A stretch of 64,000 bases of DNA from Acidobacteriota bacterium. Its GTDB lineage: Bacteria; Acidobacteriota; UBA890; WLXD01. Positions 2,934-61,030 of this stretch are shown here, in pieces. The stretch is from the NCBI GenBank assembly GCA_963666215.2, contig CAXWPL010000005.1, forward strand, positions 1,440,001 through 1,504,000, given 5' to 3'. Under the pieces are notes generated by a model. It was given only the letters and a program-made list of their open reading frames with translations, was not told the origin of the DNA and made no database searches. Within the stretch, counting starts at the first letter, position 1; each line of letters starts with the position of its first letter. The position numbers and the translations under genes are program-made.

Positions 2934-4165
2934 ACGGGTAGGAAATCGCTTTTCTGAGCATGAGGAGCATGAGGGTTTTCGGAGGCCTGGGCGAGAGCTG
3001 GAGGTCCTGGGGGTCACTTCTCGGCGGCTCGACAGCAGGATTAGAGTGCGCGGTCCTGGCGGCAGGTGGGTCGCGAGAGTGCTTGGGGGCGTGCGCGGCA
3101 GCGGGGCCCCCCAGGAGTCCCCGGAGGGGGGCCAGAGGAGTCGAGGGTCCCCCGGGAGCGTCAGGCGCTCTTTGTGTCGGCAGGGATGGGTGTCTCAGGC
3201 AGGCTCATAGACCAGCTCGGGGGCTGGCGGTGAGTGAGCGAGGGGCTCCGGCTCTTGGGGTTCCGCCTGGATTCCCGCCAACAACCTGCGGATGGAAGAG
3301 AGCTTGGTGACGAAGGCCACGATTCTCACTTCGCCGCCGCAGTACGAGCACAGCAGGGGATCGATCTCGTACACCTTGCGCAGCAGGCGAGCCCAGCTGA
3401 TGCTCCGCCGCCGGGTCCTGTTCCCTGTGCTGGCGGTGGTCTCGGCGACCTGTGACGTGTCACCGGAGTGGGGAGCGCGGCGGCCCTTGCCCCGGGCAGC
3501 GTTTGAGTACAAGCCGCGCCGAGTAGACGACCTCTCCGCTCTCAGCATCCCACTCCAGACGGTCGAGGACGAGGGGGCAACGAATCATGGTTCGGCCGAG
3601 TCGTACCGCGCCCTGGCGGTTGGCATGAGGGGCATACGCAGCGCTGTTTGCAGGAGAACGCGACGATTGCGCTCTGACCGCATCCCTCGCACTTGAGGCG
3701 GGCGAAGCCCTGTTCGAGAAGGCCGCAGTCCTAGGCATCTTCAACGGCCCAAACGCGAAGAGATGGATCAAGTTTCGAAGCCTTTGAAGATGCCTGAGCC
3801 GCGCGGCGGGAGCCGCGCTTGGCGGGAAGCAAACTAGGGCGGCCCGTGGTAGTCACCACGGGTTGCACTAGTACCAGTACACCACCCTTGCGACCACGCT
3901 GCGCAGGTAGCCGAAGGTCGGCTCGAAACGATCTTCGTAGACCTGGAGGAAGCGCTCGAAGTGGTGTGTCAAGGCGCGGTACGCCACGCTCCGCTCCGGC
4001 CGCCGCCGGCGATAGACCTGGCTGTGAGCCGCCTCTGCCATTGCCTCCCGTCGAAGACAAGAGACGGAAAGCGGCGCTCAGATCTGGCACCGATCGCACC
4101 TGATGCTCTTCCGCCCCGAGCTCGGCTTCCGCTCGAACCTCGCTGGGGAACGACCGTGGGCGGCA
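2934..4165 (-). mobile_element. Degenerate IS91/ISCR-like rolling-circle element (ori-like end at 2934; transposase remnants 3195-4041)
   Basis: End reads AAAAGCGATTTCCTACCCGT on minus strand (oriIS-like); YRRRRPE, DCGLLEQGFARLKC..SCKQRCVCPSC Zn domain, YSNAARG, WARLLRKVYEIDPLLC; internal deletions. Confidence 0.85.
3731..3871. mobile_element. CTAG-bounded insertion made of two tiny inverted-repeat elements
   Basis: AGGCATCTTCAA...TTGAAGATGCCT and ctagGGCGGCCCGTGGT-agtc-ACCACGGGTTGCActag interrupt the transposase between VVYWY and DCG. Confidence 0.6.
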
Positions 4166-5754: not shown

Positions 5755-5810
5755 TCTCAAAATCCCCCGCCCGCAAGGGCGTGAGGGTTCAAATCCCTCC
5801 CCCGGTACCA
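5755..5810 (+). tRNA. 3' half of tRNA-Leu(CAA), att-site remnant, not a full tRNA
   Basis: CTCAAAA anticodon loop, long variable arm, GGTTCAAATCC T-loop, CCA end; no 5' half upstream. Confidence 0.85.
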
Positions 5811-5875
5811 CTCTAAATAGTTAATAACAAGCGACTTAGTATCGATCTCGATGCTCCGCGAATAATCGGCTGGCA

Positions 5876-7910
5876 GTGCGACACGAAGGAGGAATCTGAT
5901 GACCTGATCGAAAGACAGAGATAGGAGACCTCTGGGTCTCGAAGGCCGGCGGGTGAAAGTCCCGCCCGGGGAGTTGTCGGTACACCCCGGTAGCCGCCGG
6001 AGCAGTCGATGCGGGTGACCGTCCGGCTGAAGCCTCCGGAACAGCTGGAGTAAGTCCAGTGGGCAAAGGTGCAGGCCGCAACGCGAGTGAACCCTGAGAA
6101 GGCCCCGAAAGTTACTTGCTGGAGCCGACCCTCCTGCCATAAGGGGAAGGCCGCCGCTCGACGGAGGAGCAACCGACCGTTGAATCCGCCGAATCCAGCC
6201 GGGGTAGTGGGGGTGGCATGTACCGAAGGTCTTTGAGGCAACGTGTGAGACCCACGTCGGTGGCGGGTTGCGACCGCCAACCGGGAAGGCGTAAAAGGTC
6301 GTTCTCGGGCCGTTGTGGGAGTCGGAGGGGCTTGTATTACTGAGGAAGCCGGGTAACTCCGGTGAAGGGAAGGAGCCCTAGTTCTGGTGCGCTTTGGAAG
6401 GAGAAGGAGACCGGGATTGACGCAAAGTCTAGGACCCGAACGAGTCGAGCGACTCCGGAAGAAGCTGTGTGACAAGGCCAAGCGAGAGCCCGACTTTCGC
6501 TTCTACACCCTGTACGACAAGGTCTGCTGGCCCGAGACCCTATCTGTGGCCTACGCCCGCGCGAAAGCCAACCGGGGAGGCCCGGGAGTGGACGGAGTCC
6601 GGTTCGAGGAGATCGAGTCGTATGGGGTCGAGCGATGGCTGGGAGAGCTCCGAGAGGAGCTGGTAGAGGAAAGCTACCGTCCGCAACCGGTGCGGCGGGT
6701 GAAGATTAGGAAGCCCGGCGGCGGAGAGCGTGCGCTCGGGATCCCGACGATTCGGGATCGAGTGGCGCAAACCGCCGCAGTGCTGATCCTCGAGCCGATC
6801 TTCGAGGCCGATTTTGAAGAGAACGTGTATGGGTATCGACCGAAGCGGAGCGCCCATGATGCGCTAGCTGCCGTACGAGACGGTTTGTACGAGGGCCAGG
6901 CCCACGTCGTCGACGCCGACATCGCCCAGTACTTTGACACGATTCCCCATGGGGATTTGCTGAAGTCGGTGGCGCGTCGGATCGCCGATGGGAAGATCCT
7001 GCGACTCTTGAAGCTGTGGCTGAAGTCTCCAGTGGACGAGCAAGATGGCTCGGGTCGCTGGCGACGGACAGGCGGCAAGAAGAGGAAGCGGGGGATTCCG
7101 CAGGGTGGGGTGGTCTCACCCCTCCTGGCCAACATCTACATCAACCGGCTCGTGCGTCACTGGCGCAACTCAGGCGCCTCGAAACGCCTAGGTCAGATCG
7201 TCTCTTACGCCGATGATTTCGTCATCCTGTGCAGGAGCGAGGCGCAGGCTCGCGAGAGCTTGGATCTCGTCTCTCACTGGCTGACAAAGCTCGGCTTAGC
7301 GATTCACCCGGACAAGACCCGCCTGTGCGGGGTGTGGGAGGAGTCGTTCGACTTTCTGGGGTACACCTTCAGATCGCATCGACGCTTCCGCACCGGCCAG
7401 CGGATCTTGACTGCGAACCCTTCGAAGAAGGCCCAGAAATGGCTCCGTTTCCCGCCGCCTCTCATCGAACCGTGCTTGCGGTTCTCCCGCACACGGCTCC
7501 CGGACTGGCTTCACGACGAGGCATGCGCGAGTCGACCCTTTCGATCCCGGTACTGCTTGATGTCGAGGACTGCGGCTGAGCCGTAGACCTCGGAGGCAGA
7601 AAACCGGGCGACTCCTTGCGATTGGAGTTTGTGTCGTCGACAGAGGAATCGTCGGGCACGTCTCGCGACATGCCACCAGACGGCGCGATCCGCAGCTGCC
7701 GTCCATCCGAAGCTGAAGTAGTTGGCCCATCCCATCAAAAGACGGTTCAGCTGCAGACGCAGCTCGGGCCAGGGCTCCGGGTTCCCCCGATACAGCAGGG
7801 CGTTGACCTTCTCCTGGAGCCATGGTCAGGAGATTGAGGCACTCGCAAACGAAAGGGCGAGAAAACAGATGGGCCTGACCTACAGCCACCGCGCCCGCCG
7901 TCGACTCCAC
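5876..7910 (+). mobile_element. Group II intron with internal inversion
   Basis: 5' GTGCG, 3' GACTCCAC, RT ORF; domain V GAGCCGTGTGCGGGAGAACCGCAAGCACGGTTC lies on the minus strand within 7439-7823. Confidence 0.92.
6417..7823 (+). pseudogene. ltrA: Group II intron reverse transcriptase/maturase, C-terminal domain X inverted
   Basis: LGIPTIRDR, PQGG, YADD, FDFLG; flipping 7439-7823 restores KWLQEKVN...GWANYF. Confidence 0.9.
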
Positions 7911-7935
7911 CCTAGGGGCAGCCGGAGGCTGCCGG

Positions 7936-8368
7936 GCTGCTGCGAGGGGTCGGGAATGTGCTGGGTGAGACGGGCGATGAAGTCCAGGACATCCCAGCGG
8001 GCCACAGTGCCGTAGGGGCTGGCCGTGCGCCGCGGCCGCGCCGAGTAGACGACCTCTCCGCTCTCAGCATCCCACTCCAGACGGTCGAGGACGAGGGGGC
8101 AACGAATCATGTATCGGCCGAGTCGTACCGCGCCCTGGCGGTCCTCAGCCCGCACCGAGCCGGTGGTCTCGGCGACCTGTGACGTGTCACCGGAGTCGGG
8201 AGCGCGGCGGCGCTTGCCCCGGGCAGCGTTTGAGTAGAATCCCCAGTACCTCACGAGCTGCTGCGAGGGGTCGGGAATGTGCTGGGTGAGACGGGCGATG
8301 AAGTCCAGGACATCCCAGCGGGCCACAGTGCCGTAGGGGCTGGCCGTGCGCCGCGGCCGCGCCGAGTA
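7936..8368 (-). mobile_element. IS91-like transposase fragments with ~110 bp tandem duplication
   Basis: GRYMIRCP, QHIPDPSQQLVRYWGFYSN; 7936-8047 repeated at 8258-8368. Confidence 0.85.
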
Positions 8369-8369
8369 A

Positions 8370-8583
8370 CAACCTCGAGGACTACTTGACGCTCAACCTG
8401 AATGCCACCTACCAGTTCCCGATCAAGGGTGGGGTGCAAGGCATTATCGGCGGCGAGGTTGCCAACGTCACCAACGAGCAGGCCCAGGTCAGGATCAACT
8501 CCTTGAACGGCAGACCGCCCCCCTCGATCCAAAGTTTCCAGTTCCCGCGGGAGTATCGCCTCAAGCTCGGTTTCCGATTCTGA
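8370..8583 (+). pseudogene. C-terminal fragment of TonB-dependent receptor-like outer membrane protein
   Basis: NVTNEQ...PREYRLKLGFRF, terminal Phe beta-signal. Confidence 0.6.
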
Positions 8584-8619
8584 GCGCGTCGAAGCAACAT
8601 CGGCTTAGCTGAGATTGCA

Positions 8620-8762
8620 AAACACCGGCGGCGGCCGCCGGTGTTTTTCTTTGTGCCGAGACAGGAGCGTCTGAGACCGGCTGGCTTCGGCCGCCGGTGT
8701 TTTTCTTTTGTGCCGAGGCGCAGGCGTCTGAGACCGGCGGCCGCCGCCGGTGTTTTTTTATG
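8620..8762 (+). terminator. Three tandem intrinsic-terminator-like hairpins
   Basis: ACCGGC...GCCGGTG followed by a T-run, three times, with linker TGTGCCGAG..GCGTCTGAG. Confidence 0.7.
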
Positions 8763-9112
8763 TCTTGTCGGCTTCGCGCGTGAAGCGCCAGCTCTCGCCG
8801 CGCAGCGCTTCGGCGAGGAAGCCTTGCGTCGAGGGTCTCTCGAGCTCCCGGCGGGTGTAGGCAAAGACATCCATGCCGACGGGGAAGGACTCCGGAACAG
8901 TCCGGGCTTCGGTCACGGAAGCGCCTGCCCGACCCACTGAGGATCAAAAGCACGTCGATGTCGCTTCCTGGCGCGTAGGTGCCGCGGGGAAAGGAGCCGA
9001 ACACCACTACTTCCTCGACCTCGGGACGAGTCTCGAGCAGGCGACGGGCGAACTCGGCAGTCTGCTTCCGAATCGCCTCGAAGTCAATCGATTTGACGAC
9101 CACAGAGCTCAA
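8758..9112 (-). pseudogene. MNT nucleotidyltransferase antitoxin, frameshifted near 8895
   Basis: VVFGSFPRG..PGSDIDVL motif; tail FPVGMDVFAYT in another frame. Confidence 0.75.
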
Positions 9113-9473
9113 GAATCTCTCCGGCGGCGGCGATGGCGCGCTCGGCTTCTGAAGAAGTGTAGAAATCGGTTGGTGCGCCCTGCTCCAATCCGTTGGGATC
9201 GCGGGTCGGGATGTAGTGCTTATCGAGCTCCTTGGCTCGATCAAACAGGGAGCTCTCGATCTCGACCCTCTCGCCGAGATGGCCCAGGAGAAGTGAGAGC
9301 GTGTGACCCCATGCATCGAGATGCAACTTCTGGAAGACCGCCTTGATCGCCTTCTCGGCGGCCTGATGACAGGCAAAGGCCGCCCAATCGTAATCGCCGT
9401 CGTCGCGAGAGTTCTTCGCATGGCGCAGATCCGCCTGTGCCTGGCGCATCCAGTCTTGTGATCTCTCGGGCAT
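9084..9473 (-). CDS. HEPN domain protein
   Basis: WMRQAQADL, AAFACHQAAEKAIKA, WGH, YIPTR. Confidence 0.85.
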   Translation of the reverse strand: MPERSQDWMRQAQADLRHAKNSRDDGDYDWAAFACHQAAEKAIKAVFQKLHLDAWGHTLSLLLGHLGERVEIESSLFDRAKELDKHYIPTRDPNGLEQGAPTDFYTSSEAERAIAAAGEILELCGRQID

Positions 9474-9479
9474 CTTGGC

Positions 9480-9735
9480 GAGAAGCATCCAGCGGGGGGC
9501 ACTCTGTCGATTGTGGCGGTCCGCGAAAGCGGTCTCCGCGGTGAGGACGGAGGGCGGCTCGGAGTTGAAGCGCACTCCCAGGTCCCGTCCTTTCTCGCGC
9601 AAGAAGAGATGGAGCGACTTCAGAGTCCCGGTCTTCCCGGCCTTGACCTCGACCGGGACGATGCGGCTTCCCTGCGAGAGGATGTAGTCGACCTCGGCGG
9701 CAGAGCCCGGCTTTTCCCACGCCGTGCTCGTAGTA
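9480..9735 (-). pseudogene. DUF4143 (AAA ATPase C-terminal) fragment
   Basis: AEVDYIL..IVPVEVKAGKTGTLKSLHLF. Confidence 0.6.
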
Positions 9736-9791
9736 CAATCGACCCTCTTGACCGCACAGAGTGGATCGACGGGTCTCGGAGAGGAGGATCA

Positions 9792-12895: not shown

Positions 12896-12992
12896 CTAGG
12901 TCACCCGAATATTCTGACACGCGGGCGGTGAGGGATTTGCGGCCAAGCCGTCAGCCCAAAGGGCTGATCGCGCACGCCCAGAATCCCGTTGG
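12896..12992 (+). repeat. ~95 bp repeat or MITE end (partner 15411-15504)
   Basis: TAGG(TG)YCACCCGAATA..CTGACAC...TCAGCCC-RAA-GGGCTGA hairpin...GCCCAGAATC. Confidence 0.75.
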
Positions 12993-13206
12993 ATTTCACT
13001 GCCTCTGCGCCTCATCTTCCGACCCGGCGTTGTACGATCATTCTCTCCAGTGATTACCGGGTCGACGAAGCCGAGGCCGCAGGTCACTGCGGTCGGGCGT
13101 CGCGAACCGGGCGACGATCAACGGCGGATCGCGGACGCTTTCGCGCGCCTCGTAAACCGCCTCGCGGCCACTCAAGACGGCCGTCGGACACTGCTGGATC
13201 ATCGTC

Positions 13207-14250
13207 ATGCGCATCAACTACACCAGACTCGCGTTGCTCCTTCTCGTCATCGCGGCCCCCGGCGTCGCGGCCCAGCCGCCCCCGAATCCCTATCGTCTCG
13301 TCGAGGACTGGCCACAGCTCCCAACGACGATGAACGGCGGCGAGTGGGGGGAGACGATCGGCGTCGATCGTGATCACGACGGGAACATCTGGGTCTTTCA
13401 CCGGTGCTTCAACGATGAGCCGGCCGGCGCAGCCACCTGTGTCGGCAGGGACGATGATCCACCGATCCTGAAGTTCCATCCGTCCGGCGAGCTGCTCGAT
13501 AGCTGGGGCGAAGGTCGCTTCGCGGCACCGCACGGGTTTCACATCGACCCGGAGGGGAACCTCTGGGCGACCGACTACAACGGCAGCGAGACCGTGCTCG
13601 GTCTGTCGGCCGGCGGCCGCGGGCATCAGGTGTTCAAGTTCAGCCCGACGGGCGAGCTGCTGCTGACGCTGGGTCAAGCGGGGGTCGCGGGGAACGGACC
13701 GGACACCTTCGACCGGCCGTCCGATGTCGCGGTCGCCGACAATGGGGACATCTTCGTGACCGATGGCCACGGGCCCAACAACCGGGTCGTGAAGTTCGCG
13801 AAGGACGGGCGGTTCATCACGACCTGGGGAGGGCCAGGCGACGGACCCGGCGAGTTCAACCAACCGCACACCCTGTCGCTGGATACGCAAGGACGCGTGT
13901 TCGTCGGGGATCGATCGAACAGCCGTATTCAGATCTTCGAGCCCGACGGCACGTTCGTCGCTGAATGGAAACAGTTCGGTCGGCCGAGCGGCATGTTCAT
14001 CGACGAGGACGACATCTTGTATGTCACCGACTCGACGTCGAATTCGAGAAACAACCCCGGCTTCAACCGCGGGATCTACATCGGCAGCGCGAGGGATGGC
14101 TCGGTCACCGCCTACATTGCGGATCCCGATCTCGACCAACAGGAAGTGCGTGGCATCTCGGGGGCGTCGGGCATCACCGCGGATCGCGCTGGCAACGTCT
14201 ACGCAGCCGACGTCGGCCCAAAACGGATACGGAAATACGTCAAGCCCTGA
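13207..14250 (+). CDS. NHL-repeat / peptidyl-alpha-hydroxyglycine lyase (PAL)-like exported protein
   Basis: Signal peptide; PHG, FDRPSDVAV, DGHGPNNRVVKF, FNQPH, DRSNSRIQIF. Confidence 0.85.
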   Translation: MRINYTRLALLLLVIAAPGVAAQPPPNPYRLVEDWPQLPTTMNGGEWGETIGVDRDHDGNIWVFHRCFNDEPAGAATCVGRDDDPPILKFHPSGELLDSWGEGRFAAPHGFHIDPEGNLWATDYNGSETVLGLSAGGRGHQVFKFSPTGELLLTLGQAGVAGNGPDTFDRPSDVAVADNGDIFVTDGHGPNNRVVKFAKDGRFITTWGGPGDGPGEFNQPHTLSLDTQGRVFVGDRSNSRIQIFEPDGTFVAEWKQFGRPSGMFIDEDDILYVTDSTSNSRNNPGFNRGIYIGSARDGSVTAYIADPDLDQQEVRGISGASGITADRAGNVYAADVGPKRIRKYVKP

Positions 14251-14307
14251 TGGTCCGTCCAGAACCCTGAGCCGGGTGCGCTACACTCGCCGGCACTGGA
14301 GGCCAGA

Positions 14308-15414
14308 ATGCTCGCAAAACAGCTAACGACACTCGCTGCACTCACGCTTCTCGCCGCCGCGTGCGGGTCGCCGCCGTCCGCCACCGAGGCGCCCGCCGCC
14401 GAGATGGACGTCCTGCAGCCACCGCCTGGGGTCGACATCGACCGCGCCTATGCTCCCGGTCAGGTGGTCGATGCGCAGGGGCTGGCCGGTTGGTATCCGC
14501 ACGAAGGCGGGTTGATGGAGTATCGCGTTGCGATCCGCTTCGGTCTGGAGCCGAACACGATGCCGGACGGCTGGACCTTCGGCCGAGTGTCCGCCGTGGC
14601 GACCGACTCCAGCGGTCAGGTCTTCGTGTTTCATCGCGGCGACGTCGCCGATCCGATCATCGTCTTCGATGCCAAAGGCAACTACCTGCGGTCCTTCGGG
14701 CGCGATCTGGACTTCGGCAACGAGCACGGGCTGCGCATCGACCGCTATGACAACGTCTGGGTCACGGACAACGGCGACCATCAGGTGATGAAGTTCACCA
14801 ACGATGGCGAGCTGCTCATGACGCTCGGCACCAAAGGAGAGGCTGGCACCACCGACGACACCTTCGATCGTCCGGCAGATATCGCCTTCGGTCCCGACGA
14901 CGAGCTCTACGTCGCCGATGGGTATGGCAACAGCCGGGTGGTCAAGTTCGACGCCGAGGGGAATTTCGTCACGACGTGGGGCACGCCTGGCTCAGCCCCC
15001 GGCGAGTTCGACCTCGTGCACTCGATCGCTGTGGACTCCCGGGGGCGCGTGTATGCCAGCGACCGCGAGAACAACCGGATCCAGATCTTCGATGAGAACG
15101 GCGAGCTCCTGAGGATGTGGACTCATCTCGGGGCGACCCAGAACATCTTCATCACACCTGACGACCAGGTGTGGGTCATCACCCACCGCGACAACGTCGA
15201 GAACATCACCTACGACACACTCGCCGGCCGGATCATGCGGGTCGACATCGAGACGGGTGAAGTCATCGGTGCCATGGAGAGCCCCGGGCACTGGATTGAC
15301 GTCGCCGCCAGTGGCGAGATCTTCATCGGGAGTCTTACCGGTAACGTGTTCCGATGGTACGAAGGCTGGATGGAGACCGAGGAAGCGGCGCAGGCGGAAC
15401 GGCCGGCTGCTTAG
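14308..15414 (+). CDS. NHL-repeat PAL-like lipoprotein
   Basis: LAAAC lipobox; FDRPADIAF, ADGYGNSRVVKF, DRENNRIQIF. Confidence 0.85.
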   Translation: MLAKQLTTLAALTLLAAACGSPPSATEAPAAEMDVLQPPPGVDIDRAYAPGQVVDAQGLAGWYPHEGGLMEYRVAIRFGLEPNTMPDGWTFGRVSAVATDSSGQVFVFHRGDVADPIIVFDAKGNYLRSFGRDLDFGNEHGLRIDRYDNVWVTDNGDHQVMKFTNDGELLMTLGTKGEAGTTDDTFDRPADIAFGPDDELYVADGYGNSRVVKFDAEGNFVTTWGTPGSAPGEFDLVHSIAVDSRGRVYASDRENNRIQIFDENGELLRMWTHLGATQNIFITPDDQVWVITHRDNVENITYDTLAGRIMRVDIETGEVIGAMESPGHWIDVAASGEIFIGSLTGNVFRWYEGWMETEEAAQAERPAA

Positions 15415-15504
15415 GTGCCACCCGAATACTCTGACACCCGGGCGAGGGATTTGCAGTCGAGCGGTCAGCCCGAAGGGCTGATCACGAACGCCCAGAATCG
15501 TTGG
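15411..15504 (+). repeat. Second copy of the ~95 bp repeat; begins at the NHL gene stop codon
   Basis: TTAGGTGCCACCCGAATACTCTGACAC...TCAGCCCGAAGGGCTGA. Confidence 0.75.
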
Positions 15505-19869: not shown

Positions 19870-20304
19870 CACAGCGCGTGCGGTGACGCCTACTCTCTGC
19901 AGCGCCTCGACGAAGGGCGCCGCCTGCCGGGCCACGTCGGCTCGACCGTCGGAGTGAACGACGAGGAAGGGAGGCGTCGTGCCGTCGGGGCCCAAGTGAT
20001 GGATAGGTGAAACGGCGTTCCAGGCGGCGGGGTCCTCGCCGAAGACCCGCCGCATCATCTCGCCAAAAGTGCTCGCCGGATCAGTCTCTTCGATGATTCG
20101 CTCTACGTTGTAGGGGCCGGTCGCGAGAGAGATGACCCCGGCGATGGTTGCCGGGGCGATATTCTGCTCGGTGAGGAATGCCGTGTTGGTGCCGACGACC
20201 GAGACCAGATGTGCGCCGGACCAGCCCATGAGGAAGATGCGCGATGGGTCGCCGCCGTAGTCAGCGGCATTATCGTGAAGCCACCGCGTAGCTCGGGCAA
20301 TGTC
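19870..20304 (-). pseudogene. Alpha/beta hydrolase (esterase) internal fragment
   Basis: WLHDNAADYGGDPSRIFLMGWS.GAHL, SPIHHL..PPFLVVH. Confidence 0.65.
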
Positions 20305-20657
20305 GCCGAGTAGACGACCTCTCCGCTCTCAGCATCCCACTCCAGACGGTCGAGGACGAGGGGGCAACGAATCATGGTTCGGCCGAGTCGTACCGCGCCC
20401 TGGCGGTCCTCAGCCCGCACCGAGCCGTGGGTCCACAAGCCGCTGTGCGGCCGGAGAGCATGTTGTTCACCGTGTCAGCGTCGATCCGTCCCTTCTCGAG
20501 CAGCATCCTGAGCACCTCGGCTCGGAAGAGGCGCTCCACCTTCTGGGCGTCGAAGTAGAGAAGGTGTCGAAAGGTCCCGTCAGGGAGCCAGGCGCCATCG
20601 GCCATCAGGACGTGGATATGTGGGTGAAATCGCAACAGCTCCCCGGACGTCTGGATG
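20304..20657 (-). mobile_element. IS91-like transposase fragment with HUH motif
   Basis: QTSGELLRFHPHIHVL; continues with a frameshift into RQGAVRLGRTMIRC. Confidence 0.85.
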
Positions 20658-20714
20658 AACCACCGTCAGCGCGATCATCAGTGCACCGATGAGAACGAGA
20701 ACGAGCATCAGGGT

Positions 20715-21448: not shown

Positions 21449-22945
21449 ATGAAACCAGGGAATCGGGTCCTGGCCCGAACCGTGCCGACCCGCACACGAC
21501 TGGCTTTCGGGGTCGGCGCCGCGGCCGAGAACATGTCGCTCTACTCGCTGTCGATCCTCGGCCTGCTGTTCTACAACCAGGTGCTTGGACTGGACGTGCT
21601 ATTGGCGGGCCTGGTGCCCACGATTGCCCTGCTGACCGACGCCATCTCGGATCCTCTGTTCGGCTCGTTCTCGGATCGTTATCGCTCCAAACGATGGGGG
21701 CGGCGTCATCCGTTCATGCTGATCTCGCCGATACCCATCGCGCTCAGCTTCTTCTGCGTCTTCAACCCACCGGACGACCTGACGCCAAACCAGCTCTTCG
21801 GGTGGTTCCTCATCTGGTCCATCAGCCTGCGGACGTTCATGACCGTGTACCACGTGCCTCACCTGGCGATGGGCGGCGAGCTGTCGAGCCGCTACATCGA
21901 ACGCTCCCGCATCATGAGCTACAACAACTTCTTCTCCTGGTTTGGTGGTGCCGGGTTGTTCAAGCTGAACACGGTCGTCTTCTTCGCTTCGGTGGCCGTG
22001 GCAACCAACGGACTCTTGAATCGCGACGCCTACCCGGCGTTCTCGATCGCGATGGCGGTCTTCATCCTGGTCGTTCTTTTCAGCTCTGCCTGGTTCACCA
22101 TAGACCGGATTCCGACGCTGCCGCAGGCACCGGAGGATCTGGACGGGTTTTCGATACGCGCATTCGGTCGCGACGTCGCTTCCGCCTTCTCGAACCGCAA
22201 CTACCGGATGCTGATGATCGCCTTCTTCGCCCTGTCGCTGATGCTCGGCCTGCGCCTGGCGCTCACCAACTACATGAACATCTTCTACTGGGAGCTACGG
22301 TCGGAGGACATCGGCACCTTGCTTTTCACCGGATCGTTCATCGGCTATGTCACCGGGTTCATGTTGACGGCGCGTTTGCACACCCGCTTCGACAAGCGGC
22401 GTACCATCGTGCTCACCGCGCTCGGACTATCGGTCTTCCCGGCAATACCGGTGGTCCTCCGATTGATGGGCACGTTTCCGGAAAACGGCTCGCCTTGGCT
22501 GCTGTGGGCGATCGCCGGATTCCAGGCCCTTTCGTCCGGCTCCGGCAGCATTCTGAACATCAGCGTCATGTCGGCGTTGGCGGACATCGCGGACGAGAAC
22601 GAGGTTCGCATCGGTCATCGACAGGAGGGCACGCTCTATGCCGCGCGGACGTTCTTCGCCAAGCTCGACAACTCACTCGGCCAGGGGATCGCCGCCTTGT
22701 CGCTGGCGATCATCGGCTTTCCGAAGAACGCGCAGCCGGGCGCGGTCGATGCCGACACCATCTACTGGCTGGGCTTGATCGAGTCGCCTCTCTCGATCGT
22801 TCCGGGTCTCATAGCCGCGTGTTTCTACGCCCAGTACCGCATCAACCGAAAGCAGTACGAGGACACGCGTCAGCAGCTCGATGAGATACACGCGCGACGC
22901 GCCACGGATGTGTCCCGTTTTTTGTGGAAATGGGTTCAGGCGTAG
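21449..22945 (+). CDS. MFS transporter, GPH (sugar:cation symporter) type; C-terminus altered by IS256
   Basis: DAISDPLFG..SD, WGRRHPF, ADIADE..RQEG; many TM segments. Confidence 0.88.
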   Translation: MKPGNRVLARTVPTRTRLAFGVGAAAENMSLYSLSILGLLFYNQVLGLDVLLAGLVPTIALLTDAISDPLFGSFSDRYRSKRWGRRHPFMLISPIPIALSFFCVFNPPDDLTPNQLFGWFLIWSISLRTFMTVYHVPHLAMGGELSSRYIERSRIMSYNNFFSWFGGAGLFKLNTVVFFASVAVATNGLLNRDAYPAFSIAMAVFILVVLFSSAWFTIDRIPTLPQAPEDLDGFSIRAFGRDVASAFSNRNYRMLMIAFFALSLMLGLRLALTNYMNIFYWELRSEDIGTLLFTGSFIGYVTGFMLTARLHTRFDKRRTIVLTALGLSVFPAIPVVLRLMGTFPENGSPWLLWAIAGFQALSSGSGSILNISVMSALADIADENEVRIGHRQEGTLYAARTFFAKLDNSLGQGIAALSLAIIGFPKNAQPGAVDADTIYWLGLIESPLSIVPGLIAACFYAQYRINRKQYEDTRQQLDEIHARRATDVSRFLWKWVQA

Positions 22946-24269
22946 TCCTCCGAGTCGTCTTTTGCTAAATCCTACCGTTTACGCGGCCCTCTCAACCTCG
23001 AGCAGGAGCTGAAGCGCCCGGTAGCCGTTAATCCTTCGCAGGTGTATCTGCCCGAAGGCGACGAGCCCCCAGAGGAGCGTGACGCCGGCAGCCTCGGTGG
23101 CAAAGGAGCCCTGGGTTTTAGTGCGGCGACGAAACTCGCGGTTCAGGTTCTCCAGAGCGTTGGTCGTGCGCACCGAACTCCACAGCGATTTGGGGAGCTC
23201 GTAGAAGGTCAGTAGCTGGAACCCTGCCTCCTCAAGGCTGCGAGCCACCGCCGGGACTAGTCGCGACCACTTGGTGACGAACGCCGCGTAGGCCTTGCGG
23301 GCCTGTGCCGCGTCCTCGGCTCGTACGATCGAGTGCCAGTCACGCCGCAGCTCGTCGTGTGCGTGCACCGGGCAGTGTTTCTTCAGATTCTCCCACTTGT
23401 GTTGGACGCAGCGCTGGACTTTGACCTCAGGCCAAGCCTTCAGCGCCGCGGCCAGCCCTTTGTGGCCATCCGTGACCAGGTAGCGCGGAGCCTGAAGACC
23501 TCGGGCCTTCAGATCCTCGATCAGCCACTTCCAGTGCTCGGCGGCCTCGCTCGCGGCTAAACGTAAGGCCACCAGCACCTTGGTGCCGTCCGGAGTCACA
23601 CCCAGCACCACCAGCACCGGTACCGAGACCACTCGACGGGCCAAGCGGACCTTCAGGTGAAAGCCATCGAGAAACAGAAGCACGTAGGACTCCTCCGACA
23701 GATCGCGCTCACTCCAGCGAGCAAAAAGCTCCTTCAGCCGAGACACCACACGCGAAACTGCGCTCTTGGACAGGTGCTCCTCACCCAGCAGCGGAGCCAA
23801 TGCCTTCTTGATCCGGCGGCTGTTAGCGCCAGCCAGATACGCACCCAGGATCGCGTCATCGACCTCCTGCGTACGACGAGCGTAACGCGGCACGATCGCA
23901 CTGCGAAACTCTACGCTGGCCCCATCCTCGCCGACTAGCCGTCCTCGTGGAATGTCCAGTTCCTTCGACCCACACGCCGTCGTGATCAGACGACGCTGCT
24001 TGCCGTTGCGATAGCCCGCACGCTCGCCTGAACGCTCGTAGGCGCTGCAGCCCAGCGCCTCGGACAGCTCTTCCTCGAGTGTGATCTCGATCGCCGCACG
24101 AACACGCTCGCGTAACAACGAACGAATGTCCTGACGGAAGCGTGCAGCTTCCCCTTCCTCGTTGATATTCTCCACCATGGCGTAATCCTCCGTTCGCCCT
24201 AACCGGCGATGTGTTTGACCACTAGGAGGTTACGCCATTCTCAATTTCCACAGCATTCGGGACGGATCC
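22906..24269 (-). mobile_element. Complete IS256-family element
   Basis: IRs GGATGTGTCCCG..TGTGGAAAT / GGATCCGTCCCG..TGTGGAAAT; 8-bp target duplication CGCGCCAC (22898-22905, 24270-24277). Confidence 0.93.
22979..24178 (-). CDS. IS256 transposase
   Basis: YRNG, LFLDG, VTDGHKGL, QRCVQH, TTNALENLN. Confidence 0.93.
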   Translation of the reverse strand: MVENINEEGEAARFRQDIRSLLRERVRAAIEITLEEELSEALGCSAYERSGERAGYRNGKQRRLITTACGSKELDIPRGRLVGEDGASVEFRSAIVPRYARRTQEVDDAILGAYLAGANSRRIKKALAPLLGEEHLSKSAVSRVVSRLKELFARWSERDLSEESYVLLFLDGFHLKVRLARRVVSVPVLVVLGVTPDGTKVLVALRLAASEAAEHWKWLIEDLKARGLQAPRYLVTDGHKGLAAALKAWPEVKVQRCVQHKWENLKKHCPVHAHDELRRDWHSIVRAEDAAQARKAYAAFVTKWSRLVPAVARSLEEAGFQLLTFYELPKSLWSSVRTTNALENLNREFRRRTKTQGSFATEAAGVTLLWGLVAFGQIHLRRINGYRALQLLLEVERAA

Positions 24270-24300
24270 CGCGCCACTGGCTAGCTATAGCTATAGCTAG

Positions 24301-39301: not shown

Positions 39302-39358
39302 TCTCAAAATCCCCCGAGGGCAACCCTCGTGAGGGTTCAAATCCCTCCCCCGGTACCA
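39302..39358 (+). tRNA. Second 3' half of tRNA-Leu(CAA), att-site remnant
   Basis: As 5755-5810 but with a different variable arm; ~150 bp upstream also homologous. Confidence 0.85.
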
Positions 39359-39686
39359 CTTCTAATCCCTTCAGAAGGATACGCTTAGGCGGAATCTCAC
39401 TGCCCGAGAAATATTCGGGTGGGACCCTGCCAGCCGAAGGCTGCTGGGGGTCCTCCCCTGTCTGTGAGTGGCGAACCTCATAGGCCTCTCTGGCCGGAGG
39501 CGGCGTCACGTGCCTCTCCGATTTGTTACGCGCTGCTCAACGTAGATGTCAGGCCAATCCAGCGAAGAGTACCCCGTCGTACGTTACGGGCGCGCTACTT
39601 CCTGTAGATGGTGGCTTACTGGTGGGCAAGCTTGCTAAATTCGTATGCCTAACGAGTGATGATCTAGAAGATATTAGGATGAGACG

Positions 39687-42752: not shown

Positions 42753-42811
42753 GCTAATTACACTACCTCATCAAAATACTGATTGCTTAGAAACGCACCG
42801 CTGTTGTGCCC

Positions 42812-42977
42812 CTAGACCAGCGTTTCCGAAGTTCGAGTCGCATAGCTCGAGGTCATTCTGTACGGAGGCAAGGCGCGCCGACGCAGGCATATTGGGAATC
42901 TGTCGAGGAGGTGCAACGCTGCCAGCGGGCAGAAGGGGCCGAGATAGGTGGCGCGAACTTTGGAAACGCTGGTCTAG
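42812..42977 (+). mobile_element. 166-bp MITE A
   Basis: TIRs CTAGACCAGCGTTTCCGAAGTTCG / CGAACTTTGGAAACGCTGGTCTAG. Confidence 0.85.
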
Positions 42978-43130
42978 TGCAAGGCCGAAATGAAGATCGT
43001 GGCGTTGGTGGTGGAGGAGTCCTCGCTGCGCCGGTTGCTGGGTGGTCTCGAGGTGGGGCCTCAGGAGGCCATCTCGTTGTCGCGGGCGCCTCCGGGGGGA
43101 GGGGAGCTGCACTACGAGGTCATCGAGACT
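42978..43130 (+). pseudogene. C-terminal fragment of a second, divergent IS91-like transposase
   Basis: CKAEMKIVALV..SSLRRLL..RAPP resembles CGGEVRIVAFV..SSIRRLL..HSPP at 3195-3340. Confidence 0.6.
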
Positions 43131-43170
43131 CGCCAGCAGCCGAGGCCTGTGGGAGGATCCGGGGACGCAG

Positions 43171-43336
43171 CTAGTGCAGTGTCTCCGACATGGCTTACCA
43201 ATATCTCGGCCTCTTTTGCCCGCTGCCGTCGTCGCGACTCGTCGACATATTCCCAATATGCCTGCCTCGTCGCTCCTTGACAGCGAACAAAATGACCTCG
43301 AGCTCTTGGCAAGCCATGTCGGAGACACAACACTAG
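43171..43336 (-). mobile_element. 166-bp MITE B
   Basis: TIRs CTAGTGCAGTGTCTCCGACATGGCTT / AAGCCATGTCGGAGACACAACACTAG; core homologous to MITE A in reverse orientation. Confidence 0.85.
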
Positions 43337-43368
43337 GAGCGCAGGCGCTCCAGGAGGGAGGACGGCCA

Positions 43369-44831: not shown

Positions 44832-45681
44832 GTGGAGTCGACGGCGGGCGCGGTGGCTGTAGGTCAGGCCCATCTGTTTCTCGCCCTTTCGGTTGCGAGT
44901 GCCTCACTGTCCTGGCCTTGGCTCCGTTTCCCGCCGCCTCTCATCGAACCGTGCTTGCGGTTTTCCCGCACACGGCTCCCGGACTGGCTTCACGACAAGG
45001 CATTCGCGAGTCGATCCCCTCGACCCGATCTAGCCGGGCGGCTCCTTGCGATCGGAGCTTGTACCGTCCTCTCGCTTGGCCTTGTCACAGAGCTTCTTCC
45101 GGAGTCGTTTGACTCATTCGGGTTCCTAGACTTGCGTCAATCCCGGTCTCCTTCTCCTTCCAAAGCGCACCAGAACTAGGGCTCCTTCCCTCCACCGGAG
45201 TTACCCGGCTTCATCAGTACTTCGAGCCCCTCCGACTCCCACCCCGGCCCGAGAACGGCCTTTTACGCCTTCCCGGTTGGCGGTCGCAACCCGCCACCGA
45301 CGTGGGTCTCACACGTTGCCTCAAAGACCTTCGGTACATGCCACCCCCACTACCCCGGCTGGATTCGACGGATTCAACGATCGGTTGCTCCTCCGCCGAG
45401 CGGCGGCCTTCCCCTTATGGCAGGAGGGTCGGCTCCAACGAGAAACTTTCGGGGCCTTCTCAGGGTTCACTCACGTTGCGGCCTGCACCTTTGCCCTCTG
45501 GACTTAATCCAGATGTTCCGGAGGCTTCAGCCGGACGGTCACCCGAATCGACTGCTCCGGCGGCTACCGGGGTGTACCGACAACTCCCCGGGCGGGACTT
45601 TCACCCGCCGGCCTTCGAGACCCAGAGGTCTCCTATCTCTGTCTTTCGATCAGGTCATCAGATTCCTCCTTCGTGTCGCAC
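44832..45681 (-). ncRNA. ORF-less group II intron derivative (850 nt)
   Basis: GTGCG start, GACTCCAC end, domains I-III and V-VI homologous to 5876-7910; RT ORF deleted. Confidence 0.9.
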
Positions 45682-45744
45682 TACCACCCGAATATCCCAA
45701 AGACTCGGCGCTGATCCGACGGTCTGGCCGTAGCGCGCCTGCAT

Positions 45745-56741: not shown

Positions 56742-57287
56742 TGCGATCCGGTAGTGACAAAGAAAATGGAGTTTGAATTATGCCTCGAGTAGTAGAGACT
56801 ATTCCTGATGCATTGGCTGCAGAGGCCGAGGCCGCCCGGGCTTGGTTCTCCAAGGAAAGCGGAAGTGATTTCAAGTTGACCGGGATTGTCGATCCCCCCG
56901 TTCGCTTCGCTCACGAAGGTGCCAGCCTCTTGTTGAGGACCCGCGCGGCGGACCACCCGGGAGCAGATCCATCTGAATGGAGGGCAGAATGTTCGGCTGG
57001 CACCCTGGCAGCTGAAGGCTGCCGGGCCCGCGCCTCTTTGTTGGGGTGCTCTCGCAGGATGGGGGACCGGGGTGCCCGGCGGCTGGTCGAGTCACGGAAA
57101 CGCGGGTGCTCTTCTTCGGGCGCGGCCGGTCAGAGCCATCTCAATCGAGATTCGCCAGACTTTGAGGTCAAAAGAGAATCTAAAAGAATACGGGGAAATT
57201 AGAATTTCAACTACCGCTGCCCATACACAGATATCCAGCACGGTACCTCTCAAACCTCTTTATATCTTATTCGCGCCCATTACTAGC

Positions 57288-58451: not shown

Positions 58452-59902
58452 GGCGGATTCAACTGGTCGTCGCAACATCTCGTGATGGAGGTGTTTCGAT
58501 GGGAGTTGGCAAGTGTCAGGGTGCGATTCGAGCGATGCGTGGCCAGATGCGGTCACCTGGCCGGCCCTCGACAGCGCGGCGCGAGGACCGGATCCGGTTC
58601 TGGGAGACGATCGCTCGTGGGGCGTCCAGCGAGGACGCCGCAACAGAGGCTGGGGTGTCGCCGGCTGTCGGGTCGAGATGGTTCAGGCAAGCTGGTGGAA
58701 TGCGACCTATCTCGTTGGCTCCGGTGTCGGGGCGTTATCTGTCGTTCGCCGAGCGTGAAGAGATCGCCATCCTTCACGCTCAGCATGTTGGGGTACGTGA
58801 GATCGCTCGCCGCCTGGGTCGTTCACCGTCGACGATTTCGCGGGAGCTGCGCCGCAACGCGGCGACTCGCAGCCGTGCCGTAACTTATCGGGCCACGACT
58901 GCGCAGTGGCACGCGGAGCGGCGCGCCAGCCGTCCGAAGGTCTCCAAGCTTGCCGCGAACGATGCCTTGCGGAGTACGTGCAGAACCGCCTCGCCGGCGT
59001 GATCGCAAGGCCTGACGGGGAGCTGGTGCCGGGTCCGGATGTGCGTTGGATCGGCCGTCGGCACGGCCGTCGCCAGGATCGGCGTTGGGCGAAATCCTGG
59101 AGTCCGGAGCAGATCTCGAACCGGCTTCGGATTGATTTCCCCCATAATGAGTCGATGCGGATCTCTCACGAGGCGATCTACCAAGCGCTCTACATCCAAG
59201 GTCGAGGAGCCCTCAAACGCGAGCTCGTCGCGTGCCTGCGAACCGGGCGAGCGCTACGAGTGCCGCATGCGCGAACCCGGGGGAGAGGCAAGAAATTTGT
59301 AACTCCGGAGATCATGATCAGCGAACGCCCCGCCGAAGCCGGCGACAGGGCCGTGCCGGGTCACTGGGAAGGCGACCTGATCGTCGGGCTCGAGAGCTCA
59401 GCGATCGGGACCCTCGTCGAACGCACTACGCGGTTCACGATGCTGCTGCACCTGCCCCGCATGGAAGGGCACGGGACCGAATCGAGGGTGAAGAACGGGC
59501 CGGCCCTCGCCGGGCACGGCGCCGAAGCCGTCCGTGACGCGATCGCGGTGTCAATCACCACGCTGCCCGAGCAGCTCCGCCGGTCCTTGACCTGGGACCA
59601 GGGCGCCGAGATGGCTCAACACGCTCAACTCCGCGTCGATACCGGCCTCGCGATCTACTTCTGCGACCCGCACAGCCCCTGGCAGCGGGGCACCAACGAG
59701 AACACCAACGGACTACTACGCCAGTACTTCCCGAAGGGCACCGACCTTGTCAGATACTCCTGCGACGACCTCGCCGCGGTCGCGCTCGCACTCAACGGCC
59801 GACCCCGCAAGACCCTCGGCTGGAGAACCCCTGCCGAAGTCTTCGATGAGCTTGTACACTCTGCTCACCAAGGCAACGCTGCGACGACTCCTTGAACCCA
59901 AG
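58452..59902 (+). mobile_element. IS30-family element; transposase frameshifted near 58965
   Basis: IRs GGCGGATTCAA..GTCGTCGCA / TGCGACGAC..TTGAACCCAAG; WSPEQIS, GHWEGD, TWDQG.E, QRGTNEN.NG. Confidence 0.9.
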
Positions 59903-60316
59903 CAGTACGCCTCGAAGGCTTACCAGGATCGGCTGGCTGAGCTGCGGTTTCGCTGCAGCATGTCCGGCGTCGGAAATTGTTATGACAATGCGGTCTTGGA
60001 GAGCTTCTTCGACAGTCTCAAGACCGAGGTCTGGGACCGACCCTTCGAGACTCGTCAGCGAGCTCACGACGAAGCGGTTTCTTACCTCGAAGTGTTCTAC
60101 AACCTGAGACGCCAGCATTCGACGCTCGGATTCCTGAGCCCCGAGGCCTTCGAAGGGGCAGCGTGAACTCACGCGCGACCGGCGGTCGGATCCGAAGGGA
60201 GGCTGCGCTCCCCGAACCTCGCACAGCCTCGTCCGAAGCTGACTACCCGAACTGATGCAGAATAGGAACTGCCCCGATGGGGCTTAACTTGGTGTCCACG
60301 AAACCGTGACCGCTCA
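59903..60316 (+). mobile_element. 3' part of a second IS3-family element
   Basis: QYAS..SMSGVGNCYDNAVLESFF..YN.RRQHSTLG; end GTGTCCACGAAACCGTGACCGCTCA. Confidence 0.82.
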
Positions 60317-60394
60317 GAACCCCTGCCGAAGTCTTCGATGAGTTTGTACACTCTGCTCACCAAGGCAACGTTGCGACGACCCCTTGAACCCAAG
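60317..60394 (+). repeat. Second IS30 right end
   Basis: Matches 59825-59902 with few substitutions. Confidence 0.88.
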
Positions 60395-60670
60395 CAGCAC
60401 GCCTCCCAGTGGTCAGCGATCCGGTGGGTGGCGTCGAAAATCGGCTGCTCGGCGGAGACCCTACGCAACTGGGTGCGGCAGGCCGAACGAGACGCGGGCC
60501 GAAGACCCGGTTTGACGACGAGCGAGCTCGAAGAGCTGAAACAGCTGAAGCGCGAGAACCGTGAGCTCAAGCGAGCGAACGAGATCCTGCGTAAGGCGTC
60601 GGCGTATTTCTCCCAGGCGGAGCTCGACCGCTGACCGAGGTGATGGTGTTGTTTATCGAAGAGCACCGGG

Positions 60671-61030
60671 ATGTCTGCTCTGGAGAAAACCCGAATTGTA
60701 GCGGAGGCGTCCACGAGCATCCGGGATCTATCGCTGGCCGGCATCCGGCTTCGCTACCCGAAGGCCTCAGAGGACGAATGCCGCCTGCGCTACGCATTGA
60801 TCACTCTCGGTCGATCCGTAGCCTGCCAGGCGTACCCGGAAGCCGAGGCGCTGGTCGCTCGCTGACTCCTGTGGCAGCGAACCCGATCGACGTCGCTCTT
60901 CTAGTCGCTCAGGTCCTCCAGGACTGCGAGGTGCGCTACTTGGTAGGTGGCTCGATCGCCAGCTCTGTCAGCGGCGAGCCGCGCTCGACGCTCGACGTCG
61001 ATCTCGTCGTGGAGCTGAGGCAGACACGAG
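60671..61030 (+). pseudogene. Small protein plus truncated nucleotidyltransferase (TA-like pair)
   Basis: LAGIRLRYP.ASEDE; YLVGGSIASS..GEPRSTLDVDLVV. Confidence 0.6.

Follow-up and report, generated by a model that had tools for sequence, protein, structure and literature searches.

The 64,000-nucleotide stretch analysed here (the window; positions 1440001-1504000 of contig C5 of G000, the Acidobacteriota genome under study, 4.65 Mb in 5 contigs and 91.7% complete) holds two copies of a group II intron whose lineage probably homes into a conserved box of 17-20 nt, (A)ATRTTCGGSTGGCA/CC(T) with the junction at the slash, by means of a reverse transcriptase and maturase without an endonuclease, the box being part of a repeat that resembles repetitive extragenic palindromic (REP) elements. 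Insertion takes place exactly after the final A of TGGCA, and every copy of the lineage that could be read lies in such a box. A preliminary description of the window had proposed that the intron gains a multicopy safe site in a small repeat family; the repeat family proved real, and all intron junctions read in a second genome lie in its box, whereas the identification of the box as the terminus of a miniature inverted-repeat transposable element (MITE) did not hold.

Occupied and vacant sites

The assignment to group II introns was borne out by Rfam model RF02003 (group II D1-D4; gathering score 49), which scored 99.4 bits at 5947-6086 (+) and 100.7 bits at 45471-45610 (-), one match in each copy. 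The exon junctions reconstructed earlier were recovered as well: copy 1 begins with GTGCG at 5876, preceded by AATAATCGGCTGGCA, and ends with GACTCCAC at 7910, followed by CCTAG, and copy 2, which also starts with GTGCG, lies between GATATTCGGGTGGTA on the 5' side and CGGTC on the 3' side. Similarity of the copy 1 site to that of copy 2 and to L001, a locus with an intact intron in the second genome (G001, 6.8 Mb, otherwise unrelated to G000), begins at 5861.

Copies at unrelated sites were found in neither genome. G001 carries at least six 5' junctions of the window lineage (L041, L045, L049, L053, L057 and L060; 93-100% identity over the part present), and all six that were read lie in the box; in G000, blastn of the 4.65-Mb genome gave no match beyond the two window copies. 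Each of the eight occupied sites (two in G000, six in G001) has TCGG at -10 to -7 and an A/T-rich stretch at -11 to -14, and reads TCGGSTGGCA directly before the intron. Among GSTGGCACC sites in G000, TCGG precedes 7 of 223, so that site choice is not explained by intron-binding site 1 (IBS1, here TGGCA) alone.

The wider intron family was represented by 22 aligned introns, namely the two window copies and 20 relatives from Acidobacteriota metagenome-assembled genomes (MAGs) with protein identities of 69-100%. The 5' exons end in GGCA in 21/22 (20 of these in TGGCA), the exception being L016 with TGTCA; at 24 junctions, the first base of the 3' exon is C in 23 cases and the first two are CC in 19, the remaining flanks being unrelated.

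Vacant versions of the box stand close to the occupied ones (Table 1). The three intron-free versions reported earlier are indeed present, at 15416 on the minus strand (AGTATTCGGGTGGCA/CCTAA), at 39424 (GTGGGA variant) and at 12901 on the minus strand (2-nt deletion), and with the newly added site at 57002 the window contains four vacant and two occupied boxes; two further vacant boxes (65881 and 68618 in window numbering) follow within 5 kb past its end. The 15411-15433 box overlaps the stop codon of a plus-strand open reading frame (ORF) at 14251-15414. The boxes at 12901 and 15416 are direct repeats within a common 84-nt stretch and bracket a plus-strand unit of two ORFs (13156-14250 and 14251-15414), an arrangement resembling a duplicated intergenic module.

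Table 1. Intron parts, target boxes and flanking exons in the window (window positions; bits for vacant boxes are weight-matrix scores)
Feature	Position	Strand	Remarks
Occupied box of copy 1, 5' exon	5861-5875	+	AATAATCGGCTGGCA; IBS1 is TGGCA at 5871-5875
Intron copy 1	5876-7910	+	2035 nt, rearranged; RF02003; 99.7% identity to L001 intron apart from the inversion
EBS1 (TGCCA plus T)	6135-6140	+	Hairpin loop of domain I; covariation in the 22-intron alignment
Intron ORF, N-terminal part (reverse transcriptase domain)	6387-7439	+	Pfam RVT_1, 140 bits; cut off by the inversion
Inverted segment of copy 1	7439-7823	-	Flanked by 8-bp inverted repeat ATGGCTCC/GGAGCCAT; 383-nt inversion
Domain VI, 3' part	7824-7910	+	Branch-point A bulged out at 7904, 7 nt short of the 3' splice site
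3' exon of copy 1	7911-7933	+	CCTAG, then hairpin GGCAGCC-GGA-GGCTGCC (7917-7933)
Vacant box, 2 nt lost from IBS1	12896-12916	-	Junction 12901; adjoins downstream ribosome-binding site and ATG
Vacant box, full match	15411-15433	-	CAGAGTATTCGGGTGGCA/CCTAA; junction 15416; 29.0 bits
Vacant box, GTGGGA variant	39406-39428	+	Junction 39424, then hairpin; paralogous to copy 1 site; 27.6 bits
Intron copy 2	45681-44832	-	850 nt, ORF-less derivative; domains V and VI in normal order
Occupied box of copy 2	45682-45696	-	GATATTCGGGTGGTA
Vacant box, newly added	56985-57028	+	44-nt palindromic unit; would-be junction 57002 in apical loop; 32.1 bits

Pairing between intron and exon

The TGCCAT loop had been proposed as exon-binding site 1 (EBS1), and the alignment of the first 520 nt of the 22 introns with their 5' exons confirms this: the 5-nt core (TGCCA, 6135-6139) pairs with the last five exon bases (TGGCA) in 21/22 rows, and the consensus fold places TGCCAT in a terminal loop of 9 nt. 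L016 shows a compensatory double change (TGACA loop, TGTCA exon), L002 and L006-8 combine the loop TGTCA with the exon TGGCA (G.U), and L020 has one mismatch. The sixth position, which pairs in 12 of 20 rows and is mismatched in the other 8 (two rows end short of that exon position), is at best optional.

When the columns of the domain I alignment were scanned one by one for pairing with exon positions -6 to -17, no EBS2 column rose above background. Complements of at least 6 nt in individual introns were rejected as EBS2 candidates, being scattered and non-homologous, with the long match in L006 falling in a GNRA-capped helix. CCGAAT at 6187-6192 is the only lineage-specific complement to the distal box and is located 3' of EBS1, which is not the usual placement of EBS2. 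As EBS2 was not located, recognition of the distal box has to be judged from the site statistics alone.

Anatomy and state of the intron copies

The intron ORF at L001 is an open frame of 464 codons that matches TIGR04416 with 374 bits (cut-off 300) and contains RVT_1 and GIIM; a domain search of this protein found no endonuclease domain. In copy 1, the corresponding frame is nonsense from 7440 on. The inverted segment carries, on its minus strand, the maturase (X) codons (7822-7511, WLQEKVN...AHASS), domain V (RF00029 match at 7433-7501) and the 5' strand of domain VI, and the inversion separates domain V from domains I-IV. The L001 intron aligns to copy 1 in three pieces at 99.7% identity, which corresponds to a simple inversion of 7439-7823. 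The uninverted order was also found in contigs of the public runs X19, X20 and X21, where 7446 is joined to 7815 on opposite strands; together with L001, these contigs indicate that the intact form of the intron exists in nature. The inverted order of the window across 7446/7447 or 7822/7823 was found in none of the public-contig pieces listed, and contigs drop rare variants; they appear neither to confirm nor to refute the arrangement of copy 1.

The RF00029 scores for domain V at the two copies (36 and 38.8 bits) are slightly below the 40-bit gathering score. The consensus fold of 17 relatives contains domain V and a domain VI that is long (~130 nt), both with compensatory pairs, and leaves the A at -7 unpaired; the 3' end of the intron is secure.

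Copy 2 has lost nearly the entire ORF and retains domains I-III, V and VI in order. It is collinear with L045 of G001 over all 850 nt (98.9% identity, same deletion), and the two occupy different boxes with different flanks, from which it follows that the ORF-less derivative moved after the ORF had been lost; a full-length copy presumably served it in trans. No further domain V was found in G000, nor was another group II reverse transcriptase detected there, so that neither copy has a working protein partner in this genome. Both window copies look like dead relics, copy 1 by its inversion and copy 2 by the loss of its ORF. Among the G001 copies, L049/L063 and L053/L061/L062 are interrupted, their 5' parts stopping at intron position 410-460 and resuming 0.5-4.5 kb further on, with other elements inserted into them.

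The box as a repeat family

Motif counts were compared with those of the same pattern read backwards as control. The core TCGGSTGGCACC occurs 63 times in G001 (control 2) and 7 times in G000 (control 3), and the stricter pattern WWTNWTCGGSTGGCAC 24 times in G001 (control 0). From the 24 strict G001 sites, less three in-ORF sites and one duplicate, a weight matrix was built on the remaining 20; it found six matches of at least 20 bits in G000 against none in the reversed control, and five of these six fall within 53 kb (C5:1,455,433-1,508,601). The box family is genome-wide in G001, where an intact intron survives. Of three other genomes, G002 shows mild enrichment of the core (13 vs 4), and G003 and G004, whose introns belong to sister lineages that have different exon sequences upstream, show none (14 vs 12 and 10 vs 17). 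The 16-mer ATNTTCGGSTGGCACC occurs once each in 2 of 80 other genomes of the phylum, and is absent from all 10 same-family and all 15 same-order genomes searched.

The interval 6.21-6.41 Mb of G001 contains seven of its 24 strict boxes and also holds two intron copies, and at G001:C1:6212127-6214298 (L082, L041) three vacant cores in the same orientation stand within 2.2 kb upstream of the intact intron of that genome.

The repeat unit consists of the 17-20 nt box, in many cases with a GC hairpin after it. Copies share about -17 to +3 around the would-be junction, beyond which they divide into subfamilies. The sharpest of these is a 44-nt palindrome, GGGCAG-AATGTTCGGCTGGCA-CCY-TGGCAGCYGAA-GGCTGCCGGG, with sharp ends and unrelated flanks, whose members are the G000 sites at 57002 and 68618 and three vacant plus one occupied G001 sites. 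When folded, this palindrome is a single long hairpin whose apical loop carries the junction at its 5' edge. Across 30 vacant sites, a hairpin of at least six perfect pairs within +1 to +40 was present at 13, compared with 3/30 and 4/30 in control windows of the same loci. Stem sequences vary while the pairing is kept (GGCAGCC/GGCTGCC, GCCGGCC/GGCCGGC, CGTTCGC/GCGAACG). An explicit stem count was used because fold z-scores of the rebuilt sites against mononucleotide shuffles (-3.8 to +1.6) were mostly weak in this GC-rich DNA. ORF clustering at the 30 sites revealed no neighbouring gene common to more than five of them. A reading of TGGCAC as a sigma-54/sigma-70 promoter was discarded, as the spacing to a -12 GC, judged by eye, fits one site only.

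Association with RAYT-like genes

G001 contains 13 Pfam Y1_Tnp matches, 12 of them above the cut-off, and their proteins of ~300 residues have the REP-associated tyrosine transposase (RAYT) model REP_Tyr_transpos as best NCBIfam match. When these 12 loci were put in one orientation, 10 of them proved to have a box-like motif (no more than two mismatches to TCGGSTGGCAC) upstream of the gene at a distance of 90-240 nt, directed away from the gene. At L095, box and hairpin occur on both sides of the Y1_Tnp gene in inverted orientation; L094 has the same arrangement, and there the upstream box is occupied by the intron. The unit is short, palindromic, repeated and mostly extragenic, with a modest copy number. 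In its unpaired box beside the stem, GTGG takes the place of GTAG; a GT[AG]G tag may be tolerated in REPs. In the available text of PMC3733652, REPs carry an unpaired GTAG-type tag at one end of a palindrome, and the accessible parts of PMC3733652, PMC3337134 and PMC3116915 describe a pattern of short palindromic intergenic repeats (REPs and REPINs) that flank a RAYT gene in inverted orientation. Since box-plus-hairpin units flank RAYT-like Y1 transposase genes as inverted pairs, the repeat is best described as REP-like and does not appear to be a MITE terminus.

Genomic setting of the window

A full tRNA-Leu(CAA) gene lies at C5:1303527-1303612, and 3' fragments of such a gene, starting in the anticodon loop, at C5:1378901-1378955 and at window positions 5756-5810 and ~39310-39360. 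The fragments are in direct orientation and look like the marks of a tandem array of integrated islands of ~75, 67 and 33.5 kb; the two window fragments are each preceded by ~250 nt that are 78-81% alike. Copy 1 and the vacant box at 39424 each lie ~65 nt behind a fragment, in a ~320-nt paralogous repeat. An interpretation of 5756-5810 as transfer-messenger RNA or a new RNA was rejected, given that ARAGORN found nothing in the window, Rfam gave nothing meaningful at E<=1, and the sequence matches the 3' end of tRNA-Leu(CAA).

Parts of the window, and parts of C5:1.57-1.59 Mb, are 97-100% identical to G001, among them an IS and a MITE-like repeat (both described below) and the introns. By comparison, two 20-kb regions elsewhere in G000 (C1:300-320 kb and C5:1.20-1.22 Mb) match it weakly, at no more than 70% over a few hundred bases or at 82-83% over 51-65 bases. 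The boxes of G000 are confined to an island-like region of ~70 kb that has mobile elements in common with G001, and boxes and introns probably arrived in DNA shared laterally with a G001-like lineage, unless the contig is chimeric.

Several other elements were recorded in the window. A 1366-bp stretch at 22905-24270 is 100% identical to at least 11 G001 copies and is presumably the insertion sequence (IS) just mentioned, shared by recent transfer. An inverted pair of a ~170-nt repeat (42809-42980 and 43167-43340) has more than 40 G001 copies at 84-98% and is, by copy number and length, the most MITE-like feature of the window. Scrambled and partly duplicated IS91-family fragments (Pfam Y2_Tnp), derived from a rolling-circle transposase gene, occupy 7880-8392 (-) and 20372-20665 (-), with repeats at 3434-3646, 7933-8368 and 20304-20433, and one of them adjoins the hairpin downstream of copy 1. 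The possibility that the box is the end of this IS91-type element was considered and dismissed, as the transposase-fragment repeat starts at 7933 and the upstream sequences of its other copies are unrelated. Frames with a nucleotidyltransferase domain (8561-9502, -) and a HEPN domain (9084-9788, -), overlapping as called, form a pairing typical of toxin-antitoxin or defence modules. At 60601-60685 (+), the Rfam ALIL pseudoknot (RF01497), a frameshift signal of some IS3-family transposases, was matched with 50.8 bits (gathering 50), near 90-nt direct repeats at 59824-59913 and 60316-60405.

Proposed mechanism and its weak points

Beyond EBS1 pairing, positions -7 to -16 and +1 to +2 would also be recognised, through an unplaced EBS2 or EBS3 or through the protein. 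Because the intron is without an endonuclease, it probably reverse-splices into transiently single-stranded DNA without cleavage of the second strand, as is generally held for endonuclease-less introns in the available portion of PMC4424553, and the adjacent hairpin may help to expose the insertion site. RAYT-like enzymes would maintain the REP units, and as the box is multicopy and mostly intergenic, it provides many harmless sites for the intron.

Several observations weigh against homing into a REP-like box as set out here. On the intron side, EBS2 was not located and no alignment column covaries with exon positions -7 to -16; the inversion of copy 1 is known from the G000 assembly only, and contig C5 could be chimeric with G001-like DNA. 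Regarding the unit, three of the 24 strict G001 matches lie inside long ORFs and may be due to chance, a clean hairpin accompanies only 13 of the 30 vacant sites, and the palindrome is not shown consistently by either occupied G000 site or by the G001 3' exons read, so that a structural requirement is at best putative. As to the REP affinity, tens of copies are few for a REP family, G000 (itself 91.7% complete) yielded no Y1_Tnp gene, most RAYT-flanking motifs have only GGGTGGCACC in common with the box, and the REP_Tyr_transpos scores of 54.5 and 40.4 bits are below the cut-off of 80, the IS200 scores being 24.8 and 18.5.

A more far-reaching proposal, possible though rather doubtful, is a stack of three layers in which RAYT-like enzymes spread the units, the intron reverse-splices at the junction exposed between box and hairpin, and it travels with REP-bearing islands. 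At replication forks, or in the course of RAYT processing, the units would form hairpins of single-stranded DNA, and the intron together with its ORF-less rider would move on such islands between distant Acidobacteriota hosts. The available text of PMC4424553 gives three target specificities of bacterial group II introns, namely homing sites, terminator motifs and attC sites; were the stack to be true, REP elements would be a fourth target class beside these.

Alternative explanations

It is unlikely that the box belongs to the host as a non-mobile cis element, conserved for its function, to which the intron has adapted (for example, the hairpin of a terminator or attenuator joined to a protein- or RNA-binding tag), although parts of the evidence agree with this. 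By a crude ORF call, 27 of the 30 vacant sites lie outside long ORFs, and the nearest downstream ORF is convergent at 11, six of these ending no more than 40 nt from the box; hairpin pairing is kept despite sequence change, two alternative hairpins are possible in the 44-nt subfamily, and a TTGACA-containing upstream block is common to three G001 copies. A terminator, however, would sit poorly with the missing U-tract after the hairpin, and the absence of the box from the 25 other same-family and same-order genomes would be odd for a host regulatory signal. Its orientation to genes is not fixed, no Rfam family matches it, and inverted pairs of it flank RAYT-like genes.

The MITE proposed in the preliminary description, with the box as terminal inverted repeat of a cut-and-paste element targeting TA/CTAG and parasitised by the intron, is very unlikely. 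It would account for the CTAG, CTAA or CCTA that follows several copies, and an inverted box-like sequence does occur within the 330 nt scanned at 15 of the 30 vacant sites; REPINs are themselves regarded as miniature mobile DNA in the accessible part of PMC3116915. The inverted sequences nevertheless have no fixed position or spacing (the nearest partner lies upstream, at -36 to -167, in seven cases, forms the hairpin arm, at +1 to +5, in six, and occurs on both sides in two) and do not amount to consistent terminal inverted repeats. CCT(A) also follows occupied sites in unrelated contexts, and is hence part of the recognised target rather than a duplication; no unit has a matching TA/CTAG on its opposite side, and no duplications flank any unit, including the sharp-ended 44-nt subfamily with its unrelated flanks. 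No DDE transposase is associated with the box, and the transposase fragment beside copy 1 is of IS91-type Y2, its repeat lying outside box and hairpin.

That there is no repeat family, the vacant sites being chance matches to the recognition sequence of the intron, would suit a conserved span (-17 to +3) equal to that usually read by group II introns and the three strict matches in ORFs, but is refuted by the reversed controls in both genomes, by the clustering of five of the six G000 matches and by hairpins and subfamilies that reach beyond the box.

Homing into a REP-like repeat would be of interest in several respects. The survival of an intron depends on harmless sites, and such a repeat is a further way to gain many of them. 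It links REP/RAYT systems and retroelements, selfish systems usually studied apart, and the interest to the mobile-DNA field would rise should the REP hairpin turn out to be the physical substrate. A natural, sequence-defined multicopy target of ~20 nt, in which occupied copies stand next to empty ones, would make the recognition rules of endonuclease-less introns testable. For annotation, a number of intergenic repeats in the window and two of its non-coding stretches are accounted for, and the region is flagged as laterally shared DNA.

Comparison with known systems

RmInt1 of Sinorhizobium meliloti, which resides in ISRm2011-2, is a homing group II intron with its target in a multicopy mobile element. 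The intron described here resembles it in having reverse transcriptase and maturase without an endonuclease, in EBS/IBS-specific homing and in a repeated target outside housekeeping genes, and differs in that the target is a REP-like box of 17-20 nt in tens of copies, not a gene-sized IS, and in that no EBS2 was located.

Class C (IIC) introns recognise a very short IBS1 together with a stem-loop on the upstream side of the insertion point. According to the available text of PMC4424553, they insert after intrinsic terminators or into integron attC sites. Like the present lineage, they exploit an intergenic motif that is repeated and associated with a hairpin, which offers safe sites in many copies, and their protein lacks an endonuclease. 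In the window lineage, by contrast, no stem lies just upstream of the junction, where 15-17 nt of sequence are conserved instead, the hairpin being downstream of the junction or enclosing it; IBS1 comprises 5-6 nt with 10 more conserved nucleotides, domain VI is long, and the RNA fits the D1D4-4 model.

A REP association of group II introns is on record for Pseudomonas putida KT2440, where, in the accessible part of PMC1525189, two of nine copies are REP-associated. REP sites are a minority there, and that part of the paper claims no specific recognition, whereas here all eight copies occupy one exact box position. This was the closest printed observation found; among the papers listed by the literature searches, in which subscription journals and supplements were not searchable, none showed as dealing with an intron specialised for REPs.

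With REP/REPIN-RAYT systems, as far as the consulted portions of the papers describe them, the repeat shares the short palindromic intergenic unit, the unpaired tag by the stem and the inverted pairs around a Y1 (HUH) gene. It departs from them in having GTGG inside GGGTGGCACC in place of GTAG, and tens of copies. Its transposase matches the RAYT model below the cut-off, and RAYTs are typically single-copy in the available text of PMC5581495, compared with 13 such genes in G001.

The ORF-less derivative recalls Thermosynechococcus, for which the accessible part of PMC2882425 describes ORF-less group II introns mobilised in trans; as there, a derivative without ORF is found at a new site, here one derivative in two boxes of two genomes. 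By mechanism, the system is ordinary homing, and what is new is the use of a REP-like repeat as the homing site.

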